From sequence record MK817115.1: a stretch of 64,000 bases of DNA; one strand, 5' to 3'. This DNA comes from Escherichia phage vB_EcoM_phAPEC6. Of this stretch, positions 50,924-61,226 are shown one piece after another (the first letter of the stretch is position 1; each line of letters starts with the position of its first letter). The notes under the pieces were generated by a model. That model ran no database searches and was not told where the DNA came from. It worked only from the letters and a program-made list of their open reading frames with translations. Made by a program: the position numbers and the translations under genes.

Positions 50924-53620
50924 TTACCAGTTTATGGTTCCTGTTTGTGATGGTAGACCGTAGCTAACTGGGAACGATGAACCTGCTGATTCAAGTGAAG
51001 CACCAAATATATCTAAACGGGAACGTTTTTGTATATTAATTGTTTCGATTTGAATTGCATTAGTTTGAATTGTACCTATCCAAAAAATATTATATGCAGT
51101 TGTCCCTGTTTCAGAAATAACATCAGTAGTTATGTAATAGTTTGCCAATCCTTGTTCCAATTTAACATATACATAAAATGTTGTATTTGCTGGATTAGAC
51201 TTAATAGTTCTCAAATCAATATTTGAAACTGGTAGTGAAAATGACTTACCTGAAAGAATAACTGGTGTTTCCTCTGTAAAATATACAATAAACCCTTGAG
51301 CAACGTCCTGGGATACTACGTTAATTGGGCTACCTTGTGCAGTCCAGTTATTATAGTCTGCAATCGTTGTTCCATATTTTTTGAATGTCATTTTATTTGA
51401 GTAATCCATTGGTTCAAAAATTCCAAAACCAATACCAGGTAATGCTGCTGGTTGACTTCCTTGTTCATAACTGGCATGAGATCCAGTAATTATAAAACTT
51501 GTAAATTGTGCAGTTGATTTAGTTACATATGCTCTAAATTGATGAGTTGCAGTATTACCTATTGTTGGATGTGATAATGGGTCAGAACCACCAATGAAGT
51601 AGAATGAACCACCATCATATATGGTCAAACCAACAGAAGAAGATGCAATCGAACCATTCCCAGTTGGTGTAAAGTTATCACCATACGTATTCTCAAGTAC
51701 TAAACGCTTAAATGTAATAGATGTAATATTACCAACTCTAGTATTGACATTAACTTCAGCAATTCTAATATAGTTTCTATAATCATTAGTAATTGTACTC
51801 AACATAACAAAAGCTGGAATGTCTGTTTGTTGTGGAACAAATAGTGTCATATCACGGTATGCTTGTGCTGATAAATTCCAATCACTTAGAACTTTGGCAT
51901 ATTCAGTATTTCTAAAATTGTCCAGTACTGATTGTGTAACGCTTATAATTCCTGTGCCATTTAAGTTTTTATCATAGGATAATGATTGTGAATAACGTTG
52001 CCCAACCATAAAAATACCACCATTGGTTGTGACAGTTGACCCAGAAATACTACTAATAAAAATTCTATTATTTGCATTATCATCAACATTAGCACGTTCA
52101 ACTGTAGGTTCATAACCTTGTATTGTTCCTAAAGATAATGATTTAAATGTAAAATTAGGAGTACTTTTATGAACTGCATATGATGGTCTAAATCCACCAC
52201 TACCTGATGCACGTGAATATTGTTTAGTACTGTTATCTGGTAGTAATTCTACACCATTAATAAATGAACCAACCGCTGAACCAAAAGACGGGCGAACTAT
52301 ACCACCTTTGAAGTCAGTAGAAAGTACAGCACGGACATTCAGCATACTATAAACTATTTGAATAGGAAACTTAGCTTTTTGCATAAGTAATGGTTCTGCT
52401 AAGTTTGGACATGTAGTACAAAAAGCTTCACCAGAATTCAAATAAAAATATGAACTATAAATGTTTCTTGCATTTGCATGGTTATACAATGGATCGTTAT
52501 TTAAAACGTTACCAGTAGGAACTAATGCCGAACCAGTATTAGTTATAACTAATGGTGCTTGATATGAACCAATATCGTTACCCGCATCTAATGTACATTG
52601 TTTAGTACTCATATTGAACACAAAACTGTAACTATGCTGTGGACGTGTATTATATGTTGCCATTGTAAACCAAGCGTCCCCGTTCATTCTAAAGCGGAAA
52701 TTCTGCGTTCCTGGCTGCTGTGCAACATATAAATCAATTGATGTCATGTAAATCCCAATACCACGTAGATTTTGTGGAACATACACATAAGGTTTATCAG
52801 CAATATTTGTTGATGTTACCTGATTAGTAATAACCATATTATTTTGTGCAGAATATGTCGTGTTATAAAATGTTTTAGTAGTCCATCCAGTAATTCGAGT
52901 TGCAGTATAAGTACCATTGCTTATATTATAAACAACTTTTACAACAACTAATTGTAGTTGGTTATTTTCATTAAGTACGTTAAAAACATATATAGAACCA
53001 TCTTCTGCCATCATAGCATATTCAATACCACCTTCAGGTGATATATCTGCTTGGTTAACGAAAAAACCAGTATGCAATTTATCATCTAATGTACCATTGG
53101 TAATTGATATGAACAAACCATTAGTACTGTTAGAAGTATCAATATATCTACCGAGTAAAATATTTGGATCAGTATTGTATAAACCAATCGCAACTCTATT
53201 TGAACCAAAAAACCCAGGCTTGTATTGACGACTAGTGTTAATTGTACGGCTCATGTCATCAACTGATAATGCGTTAGCCAAATATGAATAAAATAATCCC
53301 TCAACACTACCGTTTGTCCCACTACGTAAAAGTACTAGTGTACCATCGTTTTCTAATAAAATTTTATTTCTACGTTGTGACTGGTTTTCTGATGCACCAT
53401 TGAAATCCCCAGAAACACCCGCAGGTAGATAGTTTTGTGAACCATAATGGGAGATTGGCATCATACTTACTATATCTAGTACTTCATCTCTGGAATAAGT
53501 ATCTAATTCCAAGTTACCGTTGGAATCAAAAACTTGTTCATTTATTCCTTGAATTGTTCTTTTACCATTAACTGTCACATTATGTGTGACATCTAAGCCA
53601 CCATATATTTTCTTTGACAT
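50924..53620 (-). CDS. Tail fibre or receptor-binding-like protein, paralog B
   Basis: 898 aa; shares N-terminal (YLP.GVSG, LLRSGTNGS) and C-terminal blocks with paralog A. Confidence 0.55.
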   Translation of the reverse strand: MSKKIYGGLDVTHNVTVNGKRTIQGINEQVFDSNGNLELDTYSRDEVLDIVSMMPISHYGSQNYLPAGVSGDFNGASENQSQRRNKILLENDGTLVLLRSGTNGSVEGLFYSYLANALSVDDMSRTINTSRQYKPGFFGSNRVAIGLYNTDPNILLGRYIDTSNSTNGLFISITNGTLDDKLHTGFFVNQADISPEGGIEYAMMAEDGSIYVFNVLNENNQLQLVVVKVVYNISNGTYTATRITGWTTKTFYNTTYSAQNNMVITNQVTSTNIADKPYVYVPQNLRGIGIYMTSIDLYVAQQPGTQNFRFRMNGDAWFTMATYNTRPQHSYSFVFNMSTKQCTLDAGNDIGSYQAPLVITNTGSALVPTGNVLNNDPLYNHANARNIYSSYFYLNSGEAFCTTCPNLAEPLLMQKAKFPIQIVYSMLNVRAVLSTDFKGGIVRPSFGSAVGSFINGVELLPDNSTKQYSRASGSGGFRPSYAVHKSTPNFTFKSLSLGTIQGYEPTVERANVDDNANNRIFISSISGSTVTTNGGIFMVGQRYSQSLSYDKNLNGTGIISVTQSVLDNFRNTEYAKVLSDWNLSAQAYRDMTLFVPQQTDIPAFVMLSTITNDYRNYIRIAEVNVNTRVGNITSITFKRLVLENTYGDNFTPTGNGSIASSSVGLTIYDGGSFYFIGGSDPLSHPTIGNTATHQFRAYVTKSTAQFTSFIITGSHASYEQGSQPAALPGIGFGIFEPMDYSNKMTFKKYGTTIADYNNWTAQGSPINVVSQDVAQGFIVYFTEETPVILSGKSFSLPVSNIDLRTIKSNPANTTFYVYVKLEQGLANYYITTDVISETGTTAYNIFWIGTIQTNAIQIETINIQKRSRLDIFGASLESAGSSFPVSYGLPSQTGTINW

Positions 53621-53696: not shown

Positions 53697-54167
53697 CTAA
53701 AAATCTTTATTTTTATATAGTATTCTTTGATTATTTGAACCACGGAAAGGTAATTTTAAATTCTTTTCGGACTCAATAAACTTACCATCAACTAATACAT
53801 CTAAGTACTGAAGTATATCTTTAGCATGATTTTTCATAATCTCATCTAAAGTATACCCACTCCAGCACCAAATAGTTTTACTAGGATAAGTTTCTTTAAC
53901 TACTTTGCATAGATTTAAAACTTCATCTATATTCTTTTTCATTAATGGATCGCCGCCTAGAAGTGACAAACCACTAACATATGGTTTTTTTAGTTCCTGT
54001 AGTATAATCTCAACTGTTTCAGTACTGAACAATTGACCACTTCTGTAATCCCATGCTTCTTCATTGAAGCAACCATCACATCCGTGCGAACACCCACTAA
54101 CAAATAAAGAGCAGCGAACGCCCTCTCCATTTACTAAATCATCCTTGATTATCGTCTGGTAATTCAT
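53697..54167 (-). CDS. nrdG: Anaerobic ribonucleotide reductase activating protein (radical SAM)
   Basis: CSHGCDGC cysteine cluster near N-terminus; adjacent to nrdD. Confidence 0.8.
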   Translation of the reverse strand: MNYQTIIKDDLVNGEGVRCSLFVSGCSHGCDGCFNEEAWDYRSGQLFSTETVEIILQELKKPYVSGLSLLGGDPLMKKNIDEVLNLCKVVKETYPSKTIWCWSGYTLDEIMKNHAKDILQYLDVLVDGKFIESEKNLKLPFRGSNNQRILYKNKDF

Positions 54168-54471
54168 CTAATATTGCACTCACTATTTCGACAAGAACAT
54201 CGCCGTGACATGATTTTGGTTTACAGAAACAACCAAGGCGTTTCCCTGCGAGTTCAAGTAATTCATCAATCTTAACTTCTCCACAAGAAATACGTTCAAT
54301 AATGTATTCTCTGAATTTTTCAATTGATTCTTCTCTTGTACTAACAATGAACTCGGCTTTGGTTTGTTTATCTTTAATATGGGTAAATGGGTTTCCCCAT
54401 TTAGACCCACGTCCAATATACACATCATACGGTTCTTTGTATTTGTTAACCACAATTGGCTTTAAATCCAT
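54139..54471 (-). CDS. Conserved hypothetical protein (KWGNPF motif)
   Basis: 110-aa ORF between nrdD and nrdG. Confidence 0.45.
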   Translation of the reverse strand: MDLKPIVVNKYKEPYDVYIGRGSKWGNPFTHIKDKQTKAEFIVSTREESIEKFREYIIERISCGEVKIDELLELAGKRLGCFCKPKSCHGDVLVEIVSAILDELPDDNQG

Positions 54472-54479
54472 AATTTACC

Positions 54480-56285
54480 TTATTTGTGCTGAATACGCTC
54501 ACAACACTCTTGTTGCTTGCCTTTATTGAAGCCACGCGAAGAAGGATTACCCAAGTACCCAGAAACACGACGAATCACTGAGATTGTCTTCTCATTACGA
54601 TTATCACATACAGGACAGTGGAAACCATGTTTATCTACACTGAACTCACCCTGGAAGCCACATTCATAACAATGGTCAACTGGTTGGTTAATACCAAAAT
54701 ATGGTATCTTAGTGTACGCATAGTTAACTAATGTTTCAAGTGCTTGAATGTTGTTTGCTAAGTTTGGAGATTCAACATAACTGATGTTTCCACCGTTACT
54801 TAGGTAAGCAAACCCTTCTTCATAACTCCATTTATCAAATGGAGAACTTTCTACCCATACTGGTTGATGGAAGGAATTTGTGATGTAATCACGTTTTAGT
54901 ACTGAAGGATATTTTGCTTCAATGCAACGTGCAAATTTATAACAAAGCGACTCTGCTGGAGTTCCATATAGACTAAAAGCAATATTACTTTCTTTTTTGA
55001 ACTCATCACATTTTACTTTCATATAATTCAGTACTGACATACAAAACTCCTTACTGATAGAACCAGTGAGGATTTCTGAACATTCAACAAGACCAACATA
55101 ACCAATACTAATACTAGCATAACCATTGTAAAATAGCTTGTCAATAGTTTCTTCTGCACCTAAACGTGCTAATGCACCTTCCATGAACAAAATTGGATTC
55201 TGCTTCGCTTTAGTGCCTTTTAAACGCTCCACACGGTTCATCTGAGCACGATATGCAATATTCATATGCTCGTCTATCTTATCAAAAAACTCTCCATCAG
55301 AATCACTCTCAAGAGCAATTAGAGGTAAATTGATAGAAACCACACCTAAATTGAAACGACCGTTGTATTGTTCATTTCCATTTGAATCTTCCCATTTTCC
55401 TAAGAATGAACGACATCCCATCGGTGTTACAGCAGTACTACTACTTCCCGTCACTTTGTGATTTAATGGAACTGAAACAAAGTCTGGGTAGATTCGTTTT
55501 GATGCACAACGCATAGCTAACTGTTTAAGGTCATAATTACTATCATTGGTATTCATGTTTATACCATCTTGTAAAAAGAAAATTACTTTAGGAAACACTG
55601 GAGTAATCTTATCTTTACCTAAACCATTCTCATGAACTTTTAAGTACTGTTCAGTGATTAATTTACCAAATTTAGAAGTATTAAGCCCTAAACTAAGAGA
55701 AATGAATGCAGCTTGTCCATTAGTGCTAATCATTGAATTAGTCTGGTAAAGTAATGTTTGACATCCATCGTATACTTCTTTTCGTAATTCTTCTTCAATG
55801 AACTCATCACTTAGATTATATTTCTTTTGTTTTTCTAACAGCTTATCCCATGACTTTTGAACGTAAGGTTCTAAACCGACATCAATGTGAGCCAACGATT
55901 GACCGCCGTATTGGGAACTAGCTACAGCTTGTACAATCTGTGTCAGTACTGTACATGCTACACTAAAACTCTTTGGTTCTTCAATTTTGGCACAACCAAT
56001 GGTAAATCCATTTTTTAGCATATCTGGGTAGTTAACTAAGCAACAGTTGGTTAATGGGCTGATATAGTAGTCTAAATCATGAATATGACCATAACCATCA
56101 TTATGCCACTGCATTAGCTCATTTGGAATAACATCTTGTGAATAATGCTTAGATAGGATACCTGCAAGTAAATCCCTGTGTGTATTGACGCATTTCGCAT
56201 CTTTGTTCGCATTTTCGTTGGTAAGATCAGTATTGCTCTGATTGAGGAAATTCGTTACGTCAGTATATAATTTATCTAATTGCAT
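54480..56285 (-). CDS. nrdD: Anaerobic ribonucleoside-triphosphate reductase
   Basis: NENANKD...RDLLAGI N-terminal block and C-terminal Cys cluster parallel T4 NrdD; start set at internal Met MQLDKLY with AAGGAA RBS (track ORF begins 21 codons earlier). Confidence 0.85.
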   Translation of the reverse strand: MQLDKLYTDVTNFLNQSNTDLTNENANKDAKCVNTHRDLLAGILSKHYSQDVIPNELMQWHNDGYGHIHDLDYYISPLTNCCLVNYPDMLKNGFTIGCAKIEEPKSFSVACTVLTQIVQAVASSQYGGQSLAHIDVGLEPYVQKSWDKLLEKQKKYNLSDEFIEEELRKEVYDGCQTLLYQTNSMISTNGQAAFISLSLGLNTSKFGKLITEQYLKVHENGLGKDKITPVFPKVIFFLQDGINMNTNDSNYDLKQLAMRCASKRIYPDFVSVPLNHKVTGSSSTAVTPMGCRSFLGKWEDSNGNEQYNGRFNLGVVSINLPLIALESDSDGEFFDKIDEHMNIAYRAQMNRVERLKGTKAKQNPILFMEGALARLGAEETIDKLFYNGYASISIGYVGLVECSEILTGSISKEFCMSVLNYMKVKCDEFKKESNIAFSLYGTPAESLCYKFARCIEAKYPSVLKRDYITNSFHQPVWVESSPFDKWSYEEGFAYLSNGGNISYVESPNLANNIQALETLVNYAYTKIPYFGINQPVDHCYECGFQGEFSVDKHGFHCPVCDNRNEKTISVIRRVSGYLGNPSSRGFNKGKQQECCERIQHK

Positions 56286-56421
56286 TGTACATTCCTTGTA
56301 TTTTGAAATCATCTGGGGGTGAAGATATTTAATATCACCAGACAACATTATAGCGTCAGAACAGGTTATTTCTCTTGACCTATATCAAGGAAAAGTCACA
56401 TTGGTTTTTATTTGCACAAAT

Positions 56422-56444
56422 AGAAAAAGCACCACTAGGGTGCT
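56422..56444 (-). terminator. Intrinsic terminator after small hydrophobic ORF
   Basis: AGCACC-ACTAG-GGTGCT with U-run on minus strand. Confidence 0.5.
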
Positions 56445-56561
56445 TTAAAGTACTGCTAATATAACAACTGCCCAAATTAACAGTAATACATTGGTTGGTG
56501 CGGAAAAAAGCATATATGCAGCAAGTGCACTACAACCTATGACAAGTTTAGCTAGTCTCAT
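56445..56561 (-). CDS. Small hydrophobic peptide (38 aa), not in ORF track
   Basis: Hand-translated MRLAKLVIGCSALAAYMLFSAPTNVLLLIWAVVILAVL; GGAG RBS; stop directly followed by terminator hairpin. Confidence 0.4.
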   Translation of the reverse strand: MRLAKLVIGCSALAAYMLFSAPTNVLLLIWAVVILAVL

Positions 56562-57363: not shown

Positions 57364-57768
57364 TTATTCAGGATCTTTATTTTTATCAACTGTGTTGTTT
57401 TTATTCAAATCAATTTGCAAAGCCATTGCAGCTTCAGCATTTTCTTCATGTGTGCCATTGAATTTATACCCATTCTTGATGAGATTCACGGTGTAGTACT
57501 TATTATAAAGAAATGCCCATACAACCATTGCAATTGTACCCACAATCCAAAATGACACTGCGTTGAGGATGAAGTAAATTACGAATGCACCGATGAACGT
57601 AATAAAGTCACCACGAAACAATGCAGGGAACGGTCCAAAGAATAATGTTGTCCAAGAAAAACCAAAGAAACCATCTTTGCGTTGTCCTACATTTTCATTT
57701 TTTAAAGAAATTGTTTTAGCCATTTTTAATCTCCTACTTTTTATTTGGGTTTGGTATACAGTACACAA
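57364..57768 (-). CDS. Membrane protein
   Basis: 134 aa with hydrophobic segments FFGPFPALF and FVIYFILNAVSFWIVGTIAMVVWAFL. Confidence 0.45.
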   Translation of the reverse strand: MCTVYQTQIKSRRLKMAKTISLKNENVGQRKDGFFGFSWTTLFFGPFPALFRGDFITFIGAFVIYFILNAVSFWIVGTIAMVVWAFLYNKYYTVNLIKNGYKFNGTHEENAEAAMALQIDLNKNNTVDKNKDPE

Positions 57769-58003
57769 ATACTAAATGATTAAAATGTTCTGTATTCGCA
57801 TACTTTGCTAAGTCGGTTATGAGGAAGTTTGTATCTTTAAATCTGCCATCATTGTATGTTGTGATTTGAAAACGTAGTTCCGGTGCAAAAATATAATAAT
57901 AGAATATATCATTTACACACCCAACAGTATGCTTAGCATATCTTTCAATTTTCATGTGTGGATAATCTCTTTCACCCCATATTCTTTTATTGCTAATGAG
58001 CAA
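57734..58003 (-). CDS. Hypothetical protein
   Basis: 89-aa ORF; true start may be internal Met, removing overlap. Confidence 0.35.
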   Translation of the reverse strand: MLISNKRIWGERDYPHMKIERYAKHTVGCVNDIFYYYIFAPELRFQITTYNDGRFKDTNFLITDLAKYANTEHFNHLVFVYCIPNPNKK

Positions 58004-58320
58004 ATTTCACATGGTTTAGCCGGAACAGGAATTCCATCTTTACTTATCCGTGCAATCAGTAAAGTATGAACATCAGCACGAGCAGCCAGTAAACATGAAA
58101 TTTCAGCATGAAGAAACTCACCTTGCGGTCGCCCAGCACGAATGGCGAAACCCTTCTGTACTGGGTGAGTCTGTGTATAAGAATTTGTGCGAGTTGCCAG
58201 TACTCTACCTTTTTTATCAAGTGCACGAGCAATAACACGATACCGTTTGTAATTTCCTACTTGTTCAATAGGTGGCATCTGGCGTAATTCTTCGATTAGT
58301 TTCTCCAATTTACTATTCAT
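57952..58320 (-). CDS. Small CDA-fold zinc-dependent deaminase
   Basis: HAE...PCxxC signature: HAEISCLLAA and PCEICSLAI; 122 aa. Confidence 0.55.
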   Translation of the reverse strand: MNSKLEKLIEELRQMPPIEQVGNYKRYRVIARALDKKGRVLATRTNSYTQTHPVQKGFAIRAGRPQGEFLHAEISCLLAARADVHTLLIARISKDGIPVPAKPCEICSLAIKEYGVKEIIHT

Positions 58321-58943
58321 AAGTCTAAGTCTATACCCTTTTCAATAGATTTCTCTAGAACCCAAAGTTTACATTCTTCACTCTCCAAATGTATCTTTGC
58401 CTCTTTCTGTTGTTCTATTGTACAAGACATTATGAATTCACGCAAGGCTTCTATCGTATTTTTTAAATTTTTTATATCATCGATGATTTTTTCTTTGGTT
58501 TCTTCATCGATTACACATGAACTCCAACTGTGTCGTTCCTCCCAAACAGTTTTAGTAGGATTAAAAATTGATGGAGTAGATTTGAATGCATGGATCTTAT
58601 TAAATGTGTTATCTGCTTCTTGTTGGGTGTAATCACCATATGTGTTTAGCACATTTTTGTATAATTTATCAATCGCCTCTTCATACGTATCACCACCACA
58701 ATCCAATTGATAATCATGTGCTTGTACCCATTCGTCGTCTTGCTCAATATACATTGGTGAAAGAAATTCTACCCAAAATTGAGTCTTTGTATTCAATGCT
58801 TTGAAATCTTCAATTCGATTTGTCATTGGACACACATCATGAGGTTCTATATCAATCCTAGCTGGAACCATATCTTTGTTTATGAATTTAGGATGAGCCA
58901 AAATCCACCAGTACTTTTCAGATGTAGTCATAGTAATCTCCAA
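58317..58943 (-). CDS. Hypothetical protein
   Basis: 208-aa ORF. Confidence 0.45.
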   Translation of the reverse strand: MEITMTTSEKYWWILAHPKFINKDMVPARIDIEPHDVCPMTNRIEDFKALNTKTQFWVEFLSPMYIEQDDEWVQAHDYQLDCGGDTYEEAIDKLYKNVLNTYGDYTQQEADNTFNKIHAFKSTPSIFNPTKTVWEERHSWSSCVIDEETKEKIIDDIKNLKNTIEALREFIMSCTIEQQKEAKIHLESEECKLWVLEKSIEKGIDLDL

Positions 58944-59746: not shown

Positions 59747-60127
59747 TCATTTAGTAAAACACGAATTATTACTGATAAGTTCATCAAGTACGTTTTGTAC
59801 TTCGATAGAATTAATATCAACTTTGTAATAATTATAGTTTTTAACTCTAAAATGTTCTTTTGATATATCAACTTTAAATTCAATAATATCAAGATTACCA
59901 ATAAAATCAGACTTATCAGTTCTTAAATCCAAAATACCTAATTCCGGTTTTTGTGGTTTACATAAAATCAAACCAAATTTATTTTCTTCAAATGCCTGAT
60001 TAAACATATCATAATAATCACTAATAACAAATCTAATATTATCAGTGCTTAACTTTCCTGATTTTCCTTTTTTATAAACAGAAACAATGTTTAGTTCAAA
60101 GGTTTTACCAAAGCGTGTGATTTTCAT
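59747..60127 (-). CDS. Hypothetical protein
   Basis: 126-aa ORF. Confidence 0.45.
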   Translation of the reverse strand: MKITRFGKTFELNIVSVYKKGKSGKLSTDNIRFVISDYYDMFNQAFEENKFGLILCKPQKPELGILDLRTDKSDFIGNLDIIEFKVDISKEHFRVKNYNYYKVDINSIEVQNVLDELISNNSCFTK

Positions 60128-61095
60128 TTTGGGCTATAACCACTTTTAATTTTGGAAATTACTTTCTTCTCGAAGAACTTACGTGCTTCTTCAATAGTTT
60201 CGAATTCTTCACCATCAGTAGTACTGGTTTTACCAATAGCACCGTACTCAATAATTACTTCACACACTGGAGCATTCAATTCAATATTATAGAATTTGTT
60301 TGAAGAACCGTGAACATATTCCAAATGAACATTATCAGGAATGTTCTGTACATAATCATAGTTCTTGAAGATAATATCAATCATATTTTCTTCGCCGCGA
60401 TCAGGAAATAGTTCAGTATTATTCAGTACTAAACGCTGTGCAGCACGGAACATATCAAAATATTGTTCGCCTTTTTTCAGTTCTTTTGTATCAGAACAGA
60501 AATGACCATAATATTCTACATAATCATTCCAAGGATAAATTCCTTCATCAGCAGTTTCAAAAACGTAAGTTTCATCTTGTGGAACTTTAAAACCACGAGT
60601 TTTTGGATGAGAAATTAAGCACAGTGAAATATTATGACCGATATCTGAATCATCAGTAATACTACCACCAACCATATGAACAACATTTTTAATACGTTCA
60701 AAATCTACATCTTCAATTTCATGATACATTAAATGTTCTTCAATATTACTTACTAGTAATGAATTACCATTTCCGGCATCGAATTCAAAAATGAAAAGTT
60801 CTACACAATCTTCTTCTTTCATTTCAATAGTATCACTGAGTTTAATATACTCATTTTTTAATTGTTCAATATTTTCATGAGAACCAAAACTATAACGTGA
60901 ACTGATATAACTACTACCGTCCAACCATCCCATATCCCAAGGTTCTTCTGACATGTATTCTGAGCTATAGAAATGAGTCAAATCATCTCTCTGAGTACAA
61001 ACCGTAAGAGAGCGAACATTATTAAGACCTTGAACTTCAAGATTCAGTACTGTAGTATTGCCAATTTTTTGTTCAGAAATAATTTTAGTTTTCAT
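60124..61095 (-). CDS. Hypothetical protein with C-terminal WGR-like segment
   Basis: C-terminus KFYNIELN...EYGAIGKTSTTDGEEFETIEEARKFFEKKVISKIKSGY resembles WGR-domain pattern (Y.I.L...WGRIG...F...A...F...K...GY). Confidence 0.4.
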   Translation of the reverse strand: MKTKIISEQKIGNTTVLNLEVQGLNNVRSLTVCTQRDDLTHFYSSEYMSEEPWDMGWLDGSSYISSRYSFGSHENIEQLKNEYIKLSDTIEMKEEDCVELFIFEFDAGNGNSLLVSNIEEHLMYHEIEDVDFERIKNVVHMVGGSITDDSDIGHNISLCLISHPKTRGFKVPQDETYVFETADEGIYPWNDYVEYYGHFCSDTKELKKGEQYFDMFRAAQRLVLNNTELFPDRGEENMIDIIFKNYDYVQNIPDNVHLEYVHGSSNKFYNIELNAPVCEVIIEYGAIGKTSTTDGEEFETIEEARKFFEKKVISKIKSGYSPK

Positions 61096-61108: not shown

Positions 61109-61190
61109 TGAATTGATTTACGCCATTTGGCTAGTTTAACATTCATGTAAGTAAGGAACTCACGTTCCATCTCTTCTGAACTCATATTAT
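61109..61190 (-). pseudogene. Truncated duplicate of the 3' end of gene 61227-61877
   Basis: Minus-strand mini-ORF MSSEEMEREFLTYMNVKLAKWRKSIQ parallels upstream C-terminus SAEEVEREFITRVQIALFQSKK; DNA repeat GAACTCACG(T/C)TC...TCTTC. Confidence 0.35.
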
Positions 61191-61226
61191 CGCATTGCAA
61201 AGCGAACATGTCAAGTGTACATCATC

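Follow-up and report, generated by a model that had tools for sequence, protein, structure and literature searches.

A short, strand-5-less zinc deaminase encoded in addition to a canonical dCMP deaminase by an Asteriusvirus jumbo coliphage

We studied a 64,000-nucleotide stretch of DNA (hereafter, the window) from Escherichia phage vB_EcoM_phAPEC6 (MK817115.1), an Asteriusvirus and jumbo coliphage of the PBECO4/121Q/BF17 group. Positions 57952..58320 on the minus strand hold a coding sequence that starts at ATG 58320-58318, stops at TGA 57954-57952, and encodes a deaminase-like protein of 122 aa. The original prediction, made from the sequence alone, had called an ORF of this length at 57952-58320, which the ATG-to-TGA reading fits exactly; we add the strand. 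Inspection of ORFs showed that the plus strand across the same interval is interrupted by stops throughout. Relative to the 121Q, fEgEco12, and RaK2 orthologues, dN/dS is 0.03-0.05, a sign of strongly purifying selection. A comparison with deaminase family profiles had been proposed, and the protein matches both PF00383 in Pfam (E=1e-6, 29 bits, for a gathering cut-off of 25) and PHROG_174, labeled “dCMP deaminase” (3e-13). Given the dN/dS, the above-cut-off PF00383 match, and an AF2 model with a cytidine deaminase (CDA) core, 57952-58320 is a real, strongly conserved zinc deaminase gene. Scans for promoters and terminators gave no signal above shuffled controls. Database records tag the ORF as “hypothetical” or “dCMP deaminase,” with no separation from the true T4-type dCMP deaminase (Cd).

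The flanking genes lie on the same strand and are tightly packed. The TGA of an upstream ORF of ~204-208 aa (58317..58943, minus strand; phrog_16370) overlaps the deaminase ATG (ATGA), and the deaminase TGA overlaps in the same way the ATG at 57955 of a downstream ORF of 73 aa (57734..57955, minus strand), which is gp491 in the 121Q annotation. The deaminase is paired with the phrog_16370 ORF in 13/13 Rak2-like loci, an observation about position that implies no functional link. Pfam and PHROG searches on the immediate neighbors in the window yielded no Pfam family and solely PHROGs of “unknown function.” The gene had been described as sitting among small membrane proteins and proteins of unassigned function rather than with nucleotide-metabolism genes. 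This is accurate for the immediate co-oriented block but does not extend far, because nrdD (54480-56348, minus strand) begins 1.6 kb downstream in the same orientation, with a DUF4326 ORF (54139-54471, minus strand) and an nrdG-like activase (53697-54167, minus strand) beyond it. The two nrd assignments come from the annotation of 121Q, fEgEco12, and CBB, and the 121Q locus has Pfam matches to NRDD, DUF4326, and Fer4_12 (the activase) at these three genes. The order deaminase, nrdD, nrdG is kept in 13/13 Rak2-like loci. No tRNA gene was found in the 64-kb window; about 8 tRNAs occur elsewhere in the phage group, including one tRNA-Arg of unstated anticodon (PMC12805682).

The HAE...PCxxC signature that first drew attention to the protein is present at residues 71-73 (HAE) and 103-107 (PCEIC). 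H71-A72-E73 (codons 58102..58110, minus strand) provide the first zinc ligand and the catalytic glutamate at the start of helix 2, and P103-C104-E105-I106-C107 (58000..58014, minus strand) provide the second and third ligands at the start of helix 3; these segments align with the HAE and PCxxC of T4-type Cd. The prediction had hinged on conservation of the motif among homologues, which we measured in 150 sequences (the query and 149 representatives of 50%-identity clusters). All six residues are kept in 97-100% of them (H 99%, A 97%, E 100%; P 99%, and both Cys 100%), and 6/149 representatives are substituted in or beside the zinc motif. Outside the motif, N46 (codon 58183..58185, minus strand) at the end of strand 2 is 98% conserved and aligned with N40 of canonical Cd; in T4 Cd, Asn40 contacts the deoxycytidine moiety (PMC12697855). 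Residues Q50-T51-H52-P53-V54-Q55 (58156..58173, minus strand) form a family motif, [K/Q]-[T/S]-H-P-x-Q, with frequencies among the 150 sequences of K 86%, T/S 100%, H 95%, P 94%, and Q 89%. The AF2 model places an additional helix (residues 53-61), headed by this motif, between strand 2 and the helix that carries HAE; over the motif, hhalign aligns the protein to canonical Cd with gaps and low confidence. R91 (58048..58050, minus strand), at the end of strand 3 in the loop towards PCxxC, is family-specific and near-invariant (98% of the 150 sequences; invariant in A1 and A2). As judged from these alignments, N46, H52-P53, Q55, and R91 are family-specific invariant residues that set the ORF apart from canonical dCMP deaminase.

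The AF2 model (pLDDT 91.9) shows a CDA core in which the two motif helices pack on a mixed sheet. By both the model and hhalign, the chain ends one residue past strand 4 and has neither helix 4 nor strand 5, so the earlier description of a “minimal” CDA fold, much shorter than T4 Cd or TadA, was apt; the Cd of this phage has 159 aa, and the solved chain of T4 Cd has 193. The protein is also strongly basic (pI 9.7, charge +8), as is the short family uniformly (median pI 9.6-9.7, 97-100% of members >8.5), against a median of 7.5 for canonical Cd.

The family comprises >1000 clusters of proteins of 96-166 aa and is found almost only in phages. Among 50 sampled members, PF00383 was matched by 50/50, PF14437 by 33/50, and PF14439 by 9/50. 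A scan of bacterial and archaeal genomes with a stringent pattern returned 2 short MAG contigs and nothing else, so there is no cellular homologue from which to borrow a function. We found no assay of any short-family member in the literature, and the sole mention found of the phiKZ homologue was a figure of transcription start sites, which gives it its own start site early in infection (PMC8244752). Six-frame scans of two unrelated complete genomes, KLEP7 (117 kb) and cyanophage Sf-CH5 (176 kb), identified the family member as the sole CDA-fold ORF, and both genomes encode thymidylate synthase and ribonucleotide reductase (RNR). A search of the PADLOC library, which contains anti-phage defense proteins only, gave nothing for the query; some of its relatives weakly match a generic PADLOC defense “dCTPase” model.

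A census of related loci, sought with a 16-sequence alignment, yielded 21 non-redundant contexts, and 300/302 listed neighbor ORFs were scanned. Genes for replication or nucleotide metabolism are frequent beside family members. Every Rak2-like locus has class III RNR, and a marine lineage (~18-19 loci) has class I RNR; NT5C occurs twice, and a dUTPase, DNA polymerase A, DnaB, and gp32 are also among the neighbors. Thymidylate synthase is absent among the 25 commonest neighbor families listed per census. Neighbors with NAD-salvage and 2OG-oxygenase annotations look lineage-specific. Further, none of the genes is a constant partner across the 21 contexts, and a guilt-by-association call is therefore not available.

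The true T4-type Cd (QXN76186.1 in BF17) is also encoded by all Rak2-like phages, including the present one, in which it lies ~11 kb from the short gene, outside the window. It retains the Zn2 ligands (159 aa, E=6e-35 to 1vq2), shares 23% identity with the short deaminase, and runs ~28 aa beyond the region that hhalign aligns with it. With a full-length Cd in every Rak2-like phage, a second dCMP deaminase looks redundant, which sharpens the question of substrate.

A phmmer search of the single protein against PDB sequences produced noise only, so a family profile was needed to reach solved relatives. With the profile, the closest were the dCMP deaminases of cyanophage S-TIM5 (4P9C, 1.4e-9), S. 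mutans (2HVV, 1.5e-6), T4 (1VQ2, 4.8e-6), and human (DCTD, 2W4L, 1e-5), and hhalign aligned the family to T4-type Cd with a probability of 97.9% (E=3e-13). All five T4 Cd residues that touch the deoxycytidine moiety (V24, N40, A105, E106, and P131; PMC12697855) correspond in hhalign to V29, N46, A72, E73, and P103, all conserved in the family, but this is a permissive test because these residues are common to other CDA-fold clades too. Canonical dCMP deaminases (Cd/ComEB/DCTD) assemble as hexamers and are allosterically controlled by dCTP and dTTP. The short family shares with them the HAE and PCxxC zinc site, a phage-encoded origin, and frequent proximity to RNR genes. It departs from them in architecture. 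Helix 4, which lies between strands 4 and 5 and marks one division of the deaminase fold (Iyer et al. 2011, PMC3239186), makes these strands parallel in dCMP deaminases (IPR016473), whereas the short protein has neither helix 4 nor a parallel strand 5; the sole tail-bearing relative modeled, P0048, is predicted to form a strand 4-strand 5 hairpin with no helix 4. Where dCMP deaminases have G-Y-N-G and H-A-E-x-N-A, the query has T-N-S-Y and H-A-E-I-S-C and retains the Asn (N46) alone. It ends before the Tyr pair that follows strand 4 (Y127 and Y131 in the phage's own Cd), an element that lies beside the active site in characterized enzymes, e.g., as CDADC1 Y457 (PMC12088426). The long insert between strand 2 and helix 2 is missing, there are no equivalents of the T4-type second zinc site (C19, C49, H94, and E102; PMC12697855), and the protein is basic whereas dCMP deaminases are neutral or acidic. 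The second zinc site is not universal among dCMP deaminases. The short protein is not a canonical dCMP deaminase.

Other groups of the superfamily resemble the protein in part. Several CDA-fold enzymes formerly annotated as dCMP deaminases, namely PBCV-1 bi-DCD (7FH4), PBS1/PhiR1-37 Dcd, and human CDADC1, in fact prefer dCTP (PMC12697855 and PMC12088426). CDADC1 binds phosphates through pocket lysines (PMC12088426), and the short family keeps basic residues in the same loops, including K102 before the PC; however, (d)CTP deaminases are at least 140 aa long and retain the complete helix-4 topology, and Foldseek matches the protein only weakly to 7FH4 (E 3.5e-3, TM 0.54). The best Foldseek matches are instead tetrameric cytidine deaminases and blasticidin-S deaminase, at a TM of only ~0.5. 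These enzymes (120-135 aa) are of like size and share the longer loop between strand 3 and PCxxC, but they carry a strand 4-strand 5 hairpin of the kind predicted in P0048 and absent from the query, a Cys as first ligand (C-x-E) with PCGxCRQ rather than HAE with PCEIC, and N-x-E ribose contacts in place of N46-S-Y48, which lacks that Glu. MafB19-like and Bd3614-like deaminases share an Asn at the end of strand 2, HxE, and a Gly before strand 4, and loss of strand 5 by C-terminal truncation is known in Bd3614 and some toxin clades (PMC3239186). The MafB19-like model (PF14437) scores only 12.3 bits on the query, below its cut-off of 27, and MafB19-like proteins occur in polymorphic-toxin contexts with an immunity gene, whereas the query is stand-alone and phage-encoded, lacks a toxin-delivery domain, and has neither an immunity gene nor toxin modules among its neighbors. 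A further comparison is mSCD-B5, a phage protein of one domain that is labeled a dCMP deaminase (PF00383 and PF14437) and acts on nucleoside triphosphates and ssDNA (bioRxiv 10.1101/2024.12.05.627091). Unlike the short protein, mSCD-B5 (154 aa) folds as a prototypical dCD (Foldseek 3e-15 to 7FH4) and is associated with a homologue of thymidylate synthase that forms 5mdCMP.

TadA edits tRNA-Arg (ACG), binds the anticodon loop through C-terminal helices, and has an (E/T)-P-C-x-M-C motif, whereas the query has K-P-C-E-I-C and no sequence after strand 4; TadA chains match the family profile at 1e-4 to 1e-2 only. On the missing helices and the wrong motif, tRNA editing of the TadA type was discarded as a main reading, and it is the least likely of the three roles originally offered (deamination of nucleotides, of tRNA, or of host nucleic acids).

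The interpretation we favor, at about even odds, is that the short protein is a catalytically competent zinc-dependent deaminase of a cytosine (deoxy)nucleotide (dCMP, dCDP, or dCTP) that is unregulated and feeds dTTP synthesis. H71, C104, and C107 would hold a zinc-bound water and E73 would shuttle the proton, such that ammonia is released on attack at C4 and cytosine becomes uracil. V29, N46, A72, E73, and P103 would grip the deoxycytidine moiety as in T4 Cd, and we infer that the phosphate or phosphates are bound by family-specific side chains, polar and basic, in the two loops of the active site (Q/K50, H52, Q55, R91, and K102). Because the insert and C-terminal elements of allosteric dCMP deaminases are missing, the enzyme is probably unregulated. 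Its product would be dUMP directly, or dUTP converted to dUMP by host dUTPase, for use by the phage thymidylate synthase. The GC content of the window is 33-36% and that of the host ~51%, and such an activity could raise the dTTP supply for a low-GC genome replicating in this host. Asteriusviruses encode thymidylate synthase and a dNMP kinase (PMC12805682), which counts in favor, as do the window GC content, the early start site in phiKZ, the conserved ligands and glutamate under purifying selection, the dCMP deaminases as closest solved relatives with five conserved deoxycytidine contacts, the RNR and other nucleotide-metabolism neighbors, and the status of sole CDA-fold gene in KLEP7 and Sf-CH5. 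Against it count the redundancy with full-length Cd; the missing helix 4, strand 5, and Tyr pair, elements that lie beside the active site elsewhere; the P0048 hairpin, which is not a dCMP-deaminase topology; the absence of thymidylate synthase from the 25 commonest neighbor families per census; and the strong basicity, which would also fit a nucleic-acid substrate.

The last point leads to a different and in our judgment unlikely possibility, in which canonical Cd serves the nucleotide pool and the short protein deaminates polynucleotides (C-to-U, or A-to-I, on ssDNA, mRNA, or tRNA) early on, to take over the host, damage its DNA, or recode RNA. Redundancy with Cd in all Rak2-like phages and a uniform positive charge unlike that of Cd would fit, although a basic pI alone is a weak discriminator. 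CDA folds truncated after strand 4 are found among nucleic-acid-targeting toxin deaminases and Bd3614 (PMC3239186), the MafB19-like model is matched by two-thirds of sampled members, single-domain phage “dCMP deaminases” do deaminate ssDNA (bioRxiv 10.1101/2024.12.05.627091), and the phiKZ homologue has an early transcription start site (PMC8244752). However, the protein has no extra nucleic-acid-binding segment and lacks the C-terminal helices and PCxMC motif of TadA, the window has no tRNA gene, and a DNA deaminase with no shield would put the replicating DNA of the phage itself at risk. The recurrent adjacency of RNR genes, and the two thymidylate synthase-encoding genomes that have no CDA-fold enzyme besides the family member, also count against it.

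A somewhat less probable proposal is that the substrate is another small molecule. It could be a free nucleoside (cytidine or deoxycytidine), a nucleotide of 5-methyl- or 5-hydroxymethyl-dC released from host DNA, or an immune signaling nucleotide that contains cytosine or adenine, in which case the protein would serve anti-defense. The coexisting Cd is compatible with this, as are the Foldseek similarity to small tetrameric cytidine deaminases and blasticidin-S deaminase, the location among early-type small ORFs with no assigned function, and invariant residues (H52, Q55, and R91) that have no counterpart in characterized enzymes. Substrate preference shifts readily within the superfamily, and experiments have led to repeated revision of annotations (PMC12697855, PMC12088426, and bioRxiv 10.1101/2024.12.05.627091). 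Nevertheless, the hallmarks of cytidine deaminases (Cys first ligand, N-x-E for ribose, and PCGxCRQ) are missing; the phage group shows no sign of hypermodified DNA, with no hydroxymethylase or glucosyltransferase homologues in RaK2 (PMC3622015); no constant partner gene emerged, and the defense-only PADLOC library gave no match; and the signaling-nucleotide variant has no direct support. Finally, a canonical enzyme deprived of strand 5 and helix 4 might be crippled, leaving a non-catalytic remnant with a binding or regulatory role. We consider this very improbable, since near-complete retention of the ligands and glutamate across 150 sequences from >1000 diverged clusters, together with the low dN/dS, is what active enzymes usually show, and on this conservation we rejected a pseudo-enzyme.

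If deamination of cytosine nucleotides is indeed the function, the role would be an ordinary metabolic one performed by an unusually reduced enzyme: a natural minimal catalytic CDA fold of four strands, with no helix 4 or strand 5, and one phage would run regulated and unregulated dC-nucleotide deaminases in parallel. The locus also flags an annotation problem, in that the labels “hypothetical” and “dCMP deaminase” blur the short ORF with true Cd in a superfamily in which recent experiments show substrate calls to be often wrong (PMC12697855 and bioRxiv 10.1101/2024.12.05.627091). We hold it unlikely that these short, basic, strand-5-less proteins are instead early anti-host enzymes, among the smallest natural deaminases of polynucleotides (ssDNA, mRNA, or tRNA) or immune signaling nucleotides, with Cd as the metabolic enzyme. 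Were the substrate of either kind, proteins of ~100-120 aa would be relevant to compact base editors and phage counter-defense, and the >1000 clusters of the family would offer ultra-compact editing or anti-defense enzymes that are still untapped.

The original prediction placed a minimal deaminase of the CDA fold at 57952-58320, without giving a strand. These coordinates are exact: they delimit an ATG-to-TGA ORF on the minus strand (ATG at 58320, TGA at 57954-57952), and the plus strand across the same interval contains many stops when read as an ORF. The 122-aa product, MNSKLEKLIEELRQMPPIEQVGNYKRYRVIARALDKKGRVLATRTNSYTQTHPVQKGFAIRAGRPQGEFLHAEISCLLAARADVHTLLIARISKDGIPVPAKPCEICSLAIKEYGVKEIIHT, has a pI of 9.67 and a net charge of +8, and carries the predicted HAE and PCxxC signature, with HAE at residues 71-73 and PCEIC at residues 103-107. 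It is the sole CDA-fold ORF found by a six-frame scan of the 64-kb window. The ORF is already known from dozens of GenBank records, sometimes with a name transferred by similarity, and naming is inconsistent: it is a “dCMP deaminase” in 121Q (gp490), CBB (CBB_135), JP4, and others, but a “hypothetical protein” in the PBECO4, BF17, RaK2, and UE-S1 records. Our literature search found no characterization of any member of the short family, as we call this protein and its phage homologues, and no curated model for it beyond the generic domain PF00383.

Over the 6 kb surrounding the gene, identity to Escherichia phage BF17 is 99.8%, and identity to slurp01, PBECO4, and UB ranges from 98 to 99.6%; all four are Asteriusvirus jumbo phages (350-380 kb) of the Rak2-like group. 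Thirteen records carry exactly this protein, Klebsiella phage RaK2 has a version with 75% identity, and homologues at 30-57% identity occur in CBB, GAP32, Serratia phage BF, Yersinia and Xanthomonas jumbo phages, phiKZ (PHIKZ260), 115-kb Aeromonas phages, and Synechococcus myoviruses. Searched with a profile, 1.84 billion cluster representatives yielded 4454 matches at E<=1e-3, of which 1062 reach E<=1e-10; lengths are 96-166 aa throughout the best 150. We confirmed 115 short-family loci in IMG/VR, and a stringent pattern scan of bacteria and archaea (one genome per species, 185,579 species) matched only two short MAG contigs; the family is large and phage-only. All 50 sampled members match PF00383, 33 match MafB19-deam, and nine match Bd3614-deam.

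The predicted motif residues hold up among homologues. In an alignment of the query with 149 of the best 150 profile matches, H71 is conserved in 99% of sequences and E73, C104, and C107 in 100%, accompanied by L70 (90%), A72 (97%), and P103 (99%). Conservation extends to N46 (98%), T/S51 (100%), H52 (95%), P53 (94%), Q55 (89%), R91 (98%), and G96 (83%); position 50 is K in 86% and Q in this phage. Because KLEP7 gp40, a member at L164:34566-34985 (the KLEP7 locus), has H-V-E in place of H-A-E, and six of the 149 representatives have Ser or other substitutions in or beside the motif, its middle residue is not strictly fixed.

By sequence, the protein is nearest to the dCMP deaminases, yet it departs from them in both topology and motifs. 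A profile-profile alignment of the short family with T4-type dCMP deaminase (Cd) (probability 97.9%, E=3e-13) spans everything to strand 4, and the chain studied here stops one residue past that strand, whereas canonical Cds run ~28 residues further, through helix 4, strand 5, and an invariant Tyr pair that the short family lacks entirely. About 40% of family representatives end 0-2 residues from strand 4, and the others extend past it by a tail, in most cases 8-16 residues long and never longer than 28. Iyer et al. assigned dCMP deaminase and TadA to a “helix-4” topology (PMC3239186); in contrast, P0048, the only tail-bearing member modeled (pLDDT 90.6), has a predicted strand4-strand5 hairpin without helix 4, which in this one predicted structure matches the “C-terminal hairpin” arrangement shared by cytidine deaminase, BSD, and MafB19. 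Further, TNSY and HAEISC stand where dCMP deaminases have GYNG and HAExNA, and the T4-type second zinc site is absent. Short-family members have a median pI of 9.6-9.7 (97-100% above 8.5), compared with 7.5 for T4-type Cds (3% above 8.5, 62 distinct sequences) and 5.7 to 7.7 for Rak2-like canonical Cds. We see the family as a basic branch of the CDA superfamily that is confined to phages and truncated at its C terminus.

Phages of this group also encode a canonical enzyme. Two CMP/dCMP deaminases were reported for CBB (PMC5259590); CBB_135 is the short one, and CBB_110 is a 151-aa T4-like Cd. The CBB_110 orthologue in BF17 (QXN76186.1, 159 aa; MW822008.1 83585-84064, L008:5586-6065 in our BF17 locus) matches T4 Cd (1VQ2) end to end (E=6e-35), keeps the Zn2 ligands, and is separated from the short gene by 11.1 kb, which in phAPEC6 would place it at about 69.4 kb in window coordinates, outside the 64-kb window. 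Over 98 residues, the short and the canonical protein are 23% identical. A canonical Cd is present on all 13 Rak2-like IMG/VR contigs bearing the short gene. The canonical gene sits close to ClpP/HslV-like protease, Sir2, and Nudix genes in BF17, and in CBB lies near NAD-salvage genes (NMNAT, NAMPT). Two complete non-Rak2 genomes of unrelated lineages, Pseudaeromonas phage KLEP7 (117,175 bp) and Synechococcus phage Sf-CH5 (176,492 bp), present a different picture. Six-frame scans with one profile of the short family and one of T4-type Cd gave a single match in each, to its short-family member (125 and 133 bits, respectively). As a positive control, the canonical Cd of BF17 was recovered at 319 bits. 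Both annotations include thymidylate synthase and ribonucleotide reductases; since no other deaminase was matched, these genomes offer no phage-encoded candidate except the short protein to make dUMP for the phage thymidylate synthase.

The gene overlaps its minus-strand neighbors by ATGA at both ends, with an upstream ORF of ~204-208 aa (58317-58943; overlap at 58317-58320; phrog_16370, function unknown) that lies beside it in 13/13 Rak2-like loci, and with a downstream 73-aa ORF (overlap at 57952-57955), an arrangement implying that the three are translationally coupled. They belong to a co-oriented block (~61.2 to 56.5 kb) that otherwise encodes unknown small proteins, one predicted membrane protein, and a 323-aa protein (60124-61095, minus) whose C-terminal WGR domain (Pfam 1.1e-10) follows ~250 residues without assignment. 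This domain is most familiar from PARP-type proteins and, to our knowledge, is unusual in phage. A sigma-70-like site (61186-61214, minus; 11/12, extended -10) and a terminator-like hairpin (56426-56446, minus; 8-bp stem then T-run) would bound a ~4.7-kb unit including the deaminase, although such sites and hairpins are no commoner here than in shuffled sequence. Beyond the hairpin lie nrdD (54480-56348), a DUF4326 ORF (54139-54471) overlapping the next gene by ~29 nt, and an nrdG-like activase gene (53697-54167), all on the minus strand. This trio recurs in 121Q, fEgEco12, and CBB, where, as in 13/13 Rak2-like loci, the order deaminase, ~2 kb, nrdD, nrdG is kept. The KLEP7 annotation calls its DUF4326 protein “NrdA.1-like”. 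CBB/GAP32-type phages have an AAA_28 (NadR-like kinase) ORF between deaminase and nrdD (CBB_140, L006:5697-6248; L013:9482-10033 in a related locus), missing from that position in Asteriusviruses. Directly downstream of nrdG, an Asn/Ser/Thr-rich 898-aa ORF (50924-53620, minus; hypothetical in 121Q, gp499) resembles a structural or fibre protein. At the far end, the window boundary would split a small homologue of 121Q gp478 (~63.77-64.0 kb; L009:236-553 in a related locus) matching cREC_REC, the “cyclic-phosphate processing receiver domain” (1.8e-22); it directly follows Sir2-like and Nudix genes and precedes PhoH, a possible NAD- or signaling-related cluster.

Across 21 non-redundant viral contexts, with ORFs from a simple greedy caller, no constant partner gene emerged. 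In a marine lineage (~18-19 loci), class I nrdA/nrdB precede the short gene by 2-4 kb, and neighbors elsewhere include NT5C, dUTPase, DNA polymerase A, DnaB, gp32, 5'-3' exonuclease, PhoH, 2OG-Fe oxygenases, and NAD-salvage genes. The neighborhood fits the replication/nucleotide-metabolism region of large phages and is non-diagnostic.

We give an even chance to the reading that the short deaminase acts on a cytosine nucleotide (dCMP, dCDP, or dCTP) and supplies dUMP for dTTP. Established CDA chemistry and the conservation found here point to H71, C104, and C107 as the zinc ligands and to E73 as the proton shuttle in hydrolytic deamination. T4 Cd holds the deoxycytidine moiety via V24, N40, A105, E106, and P131 (PMC12697855); their aligned counterparts, V29, N46, A72, E73, and P103, are all conserved and support a nucleoside-type ligand, although they do not prove cytosine because other CDA clades share them. 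In all CDA folds the active site is flanked by the strand2-helix2 and strand3-helix3 loops, and it is here that the remaining family-specific invariant residues fall. Their polar and basic character suggests that they may bind phosphate, by analogy with the lysine cluster that does so in CDADC1 (PMC12088426). The allosteric insert is missing, and regulation is probably missing with it. Such dUMP could feed dTTP synthesis in an AT-rich phage: the window is 33-36% GC, RaK2 has 32% against 57% in its host (PMC3622015), and Asteriusviruses encode thymidylate synthase and a dNMP kinase (PMC12805682).

A polynucleotide substrate, which we think unlikely, would explain why the gene is redundant with canonical Cd and why the family is so uniformly basic. 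It would likewise account for its kinship with truncated deaminases of nucleic acids and for the early transcription start site that the phiKZ homologue PHIKZ260 has (PMC8244752), and a phage “dCMP deaminase” acting on ssDNA does exist (mSCD-B5; bioRxiv 10.1101/2024.12.05.627091). However, the protein has no extra binding element, such an activity would put the phage's own DNA at risk, and both the sole-deaminase genomes KLEP7 and Sf-CH5 and the adjacency to ribonucleotide reductase speak against it. We give a low probability to another small molecule as substrate (nucleosides, 5-modified dC nucleotides, or signaling nucleotides), a reading that draws on the plastic specificity of this superfamily, which experiments have re-assigned repeatedly. 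TadA is marked by C-terminal helices and a PCxMC motif; here the helices are absent and the motif is KPCEIC, making TadA-like tRNA editing unlikely, and the 64-kb window contains no tRNA gene. The conservation pattern contradicts a pseudo-enzyme, which we regard as highly improbable. The most probable function, cytosine-nucleotide deamination, is an ordinary one, and the interest of the protein lies in the reduction of its fold, its coexistence with a true Cd, and the large family to which it belongs.
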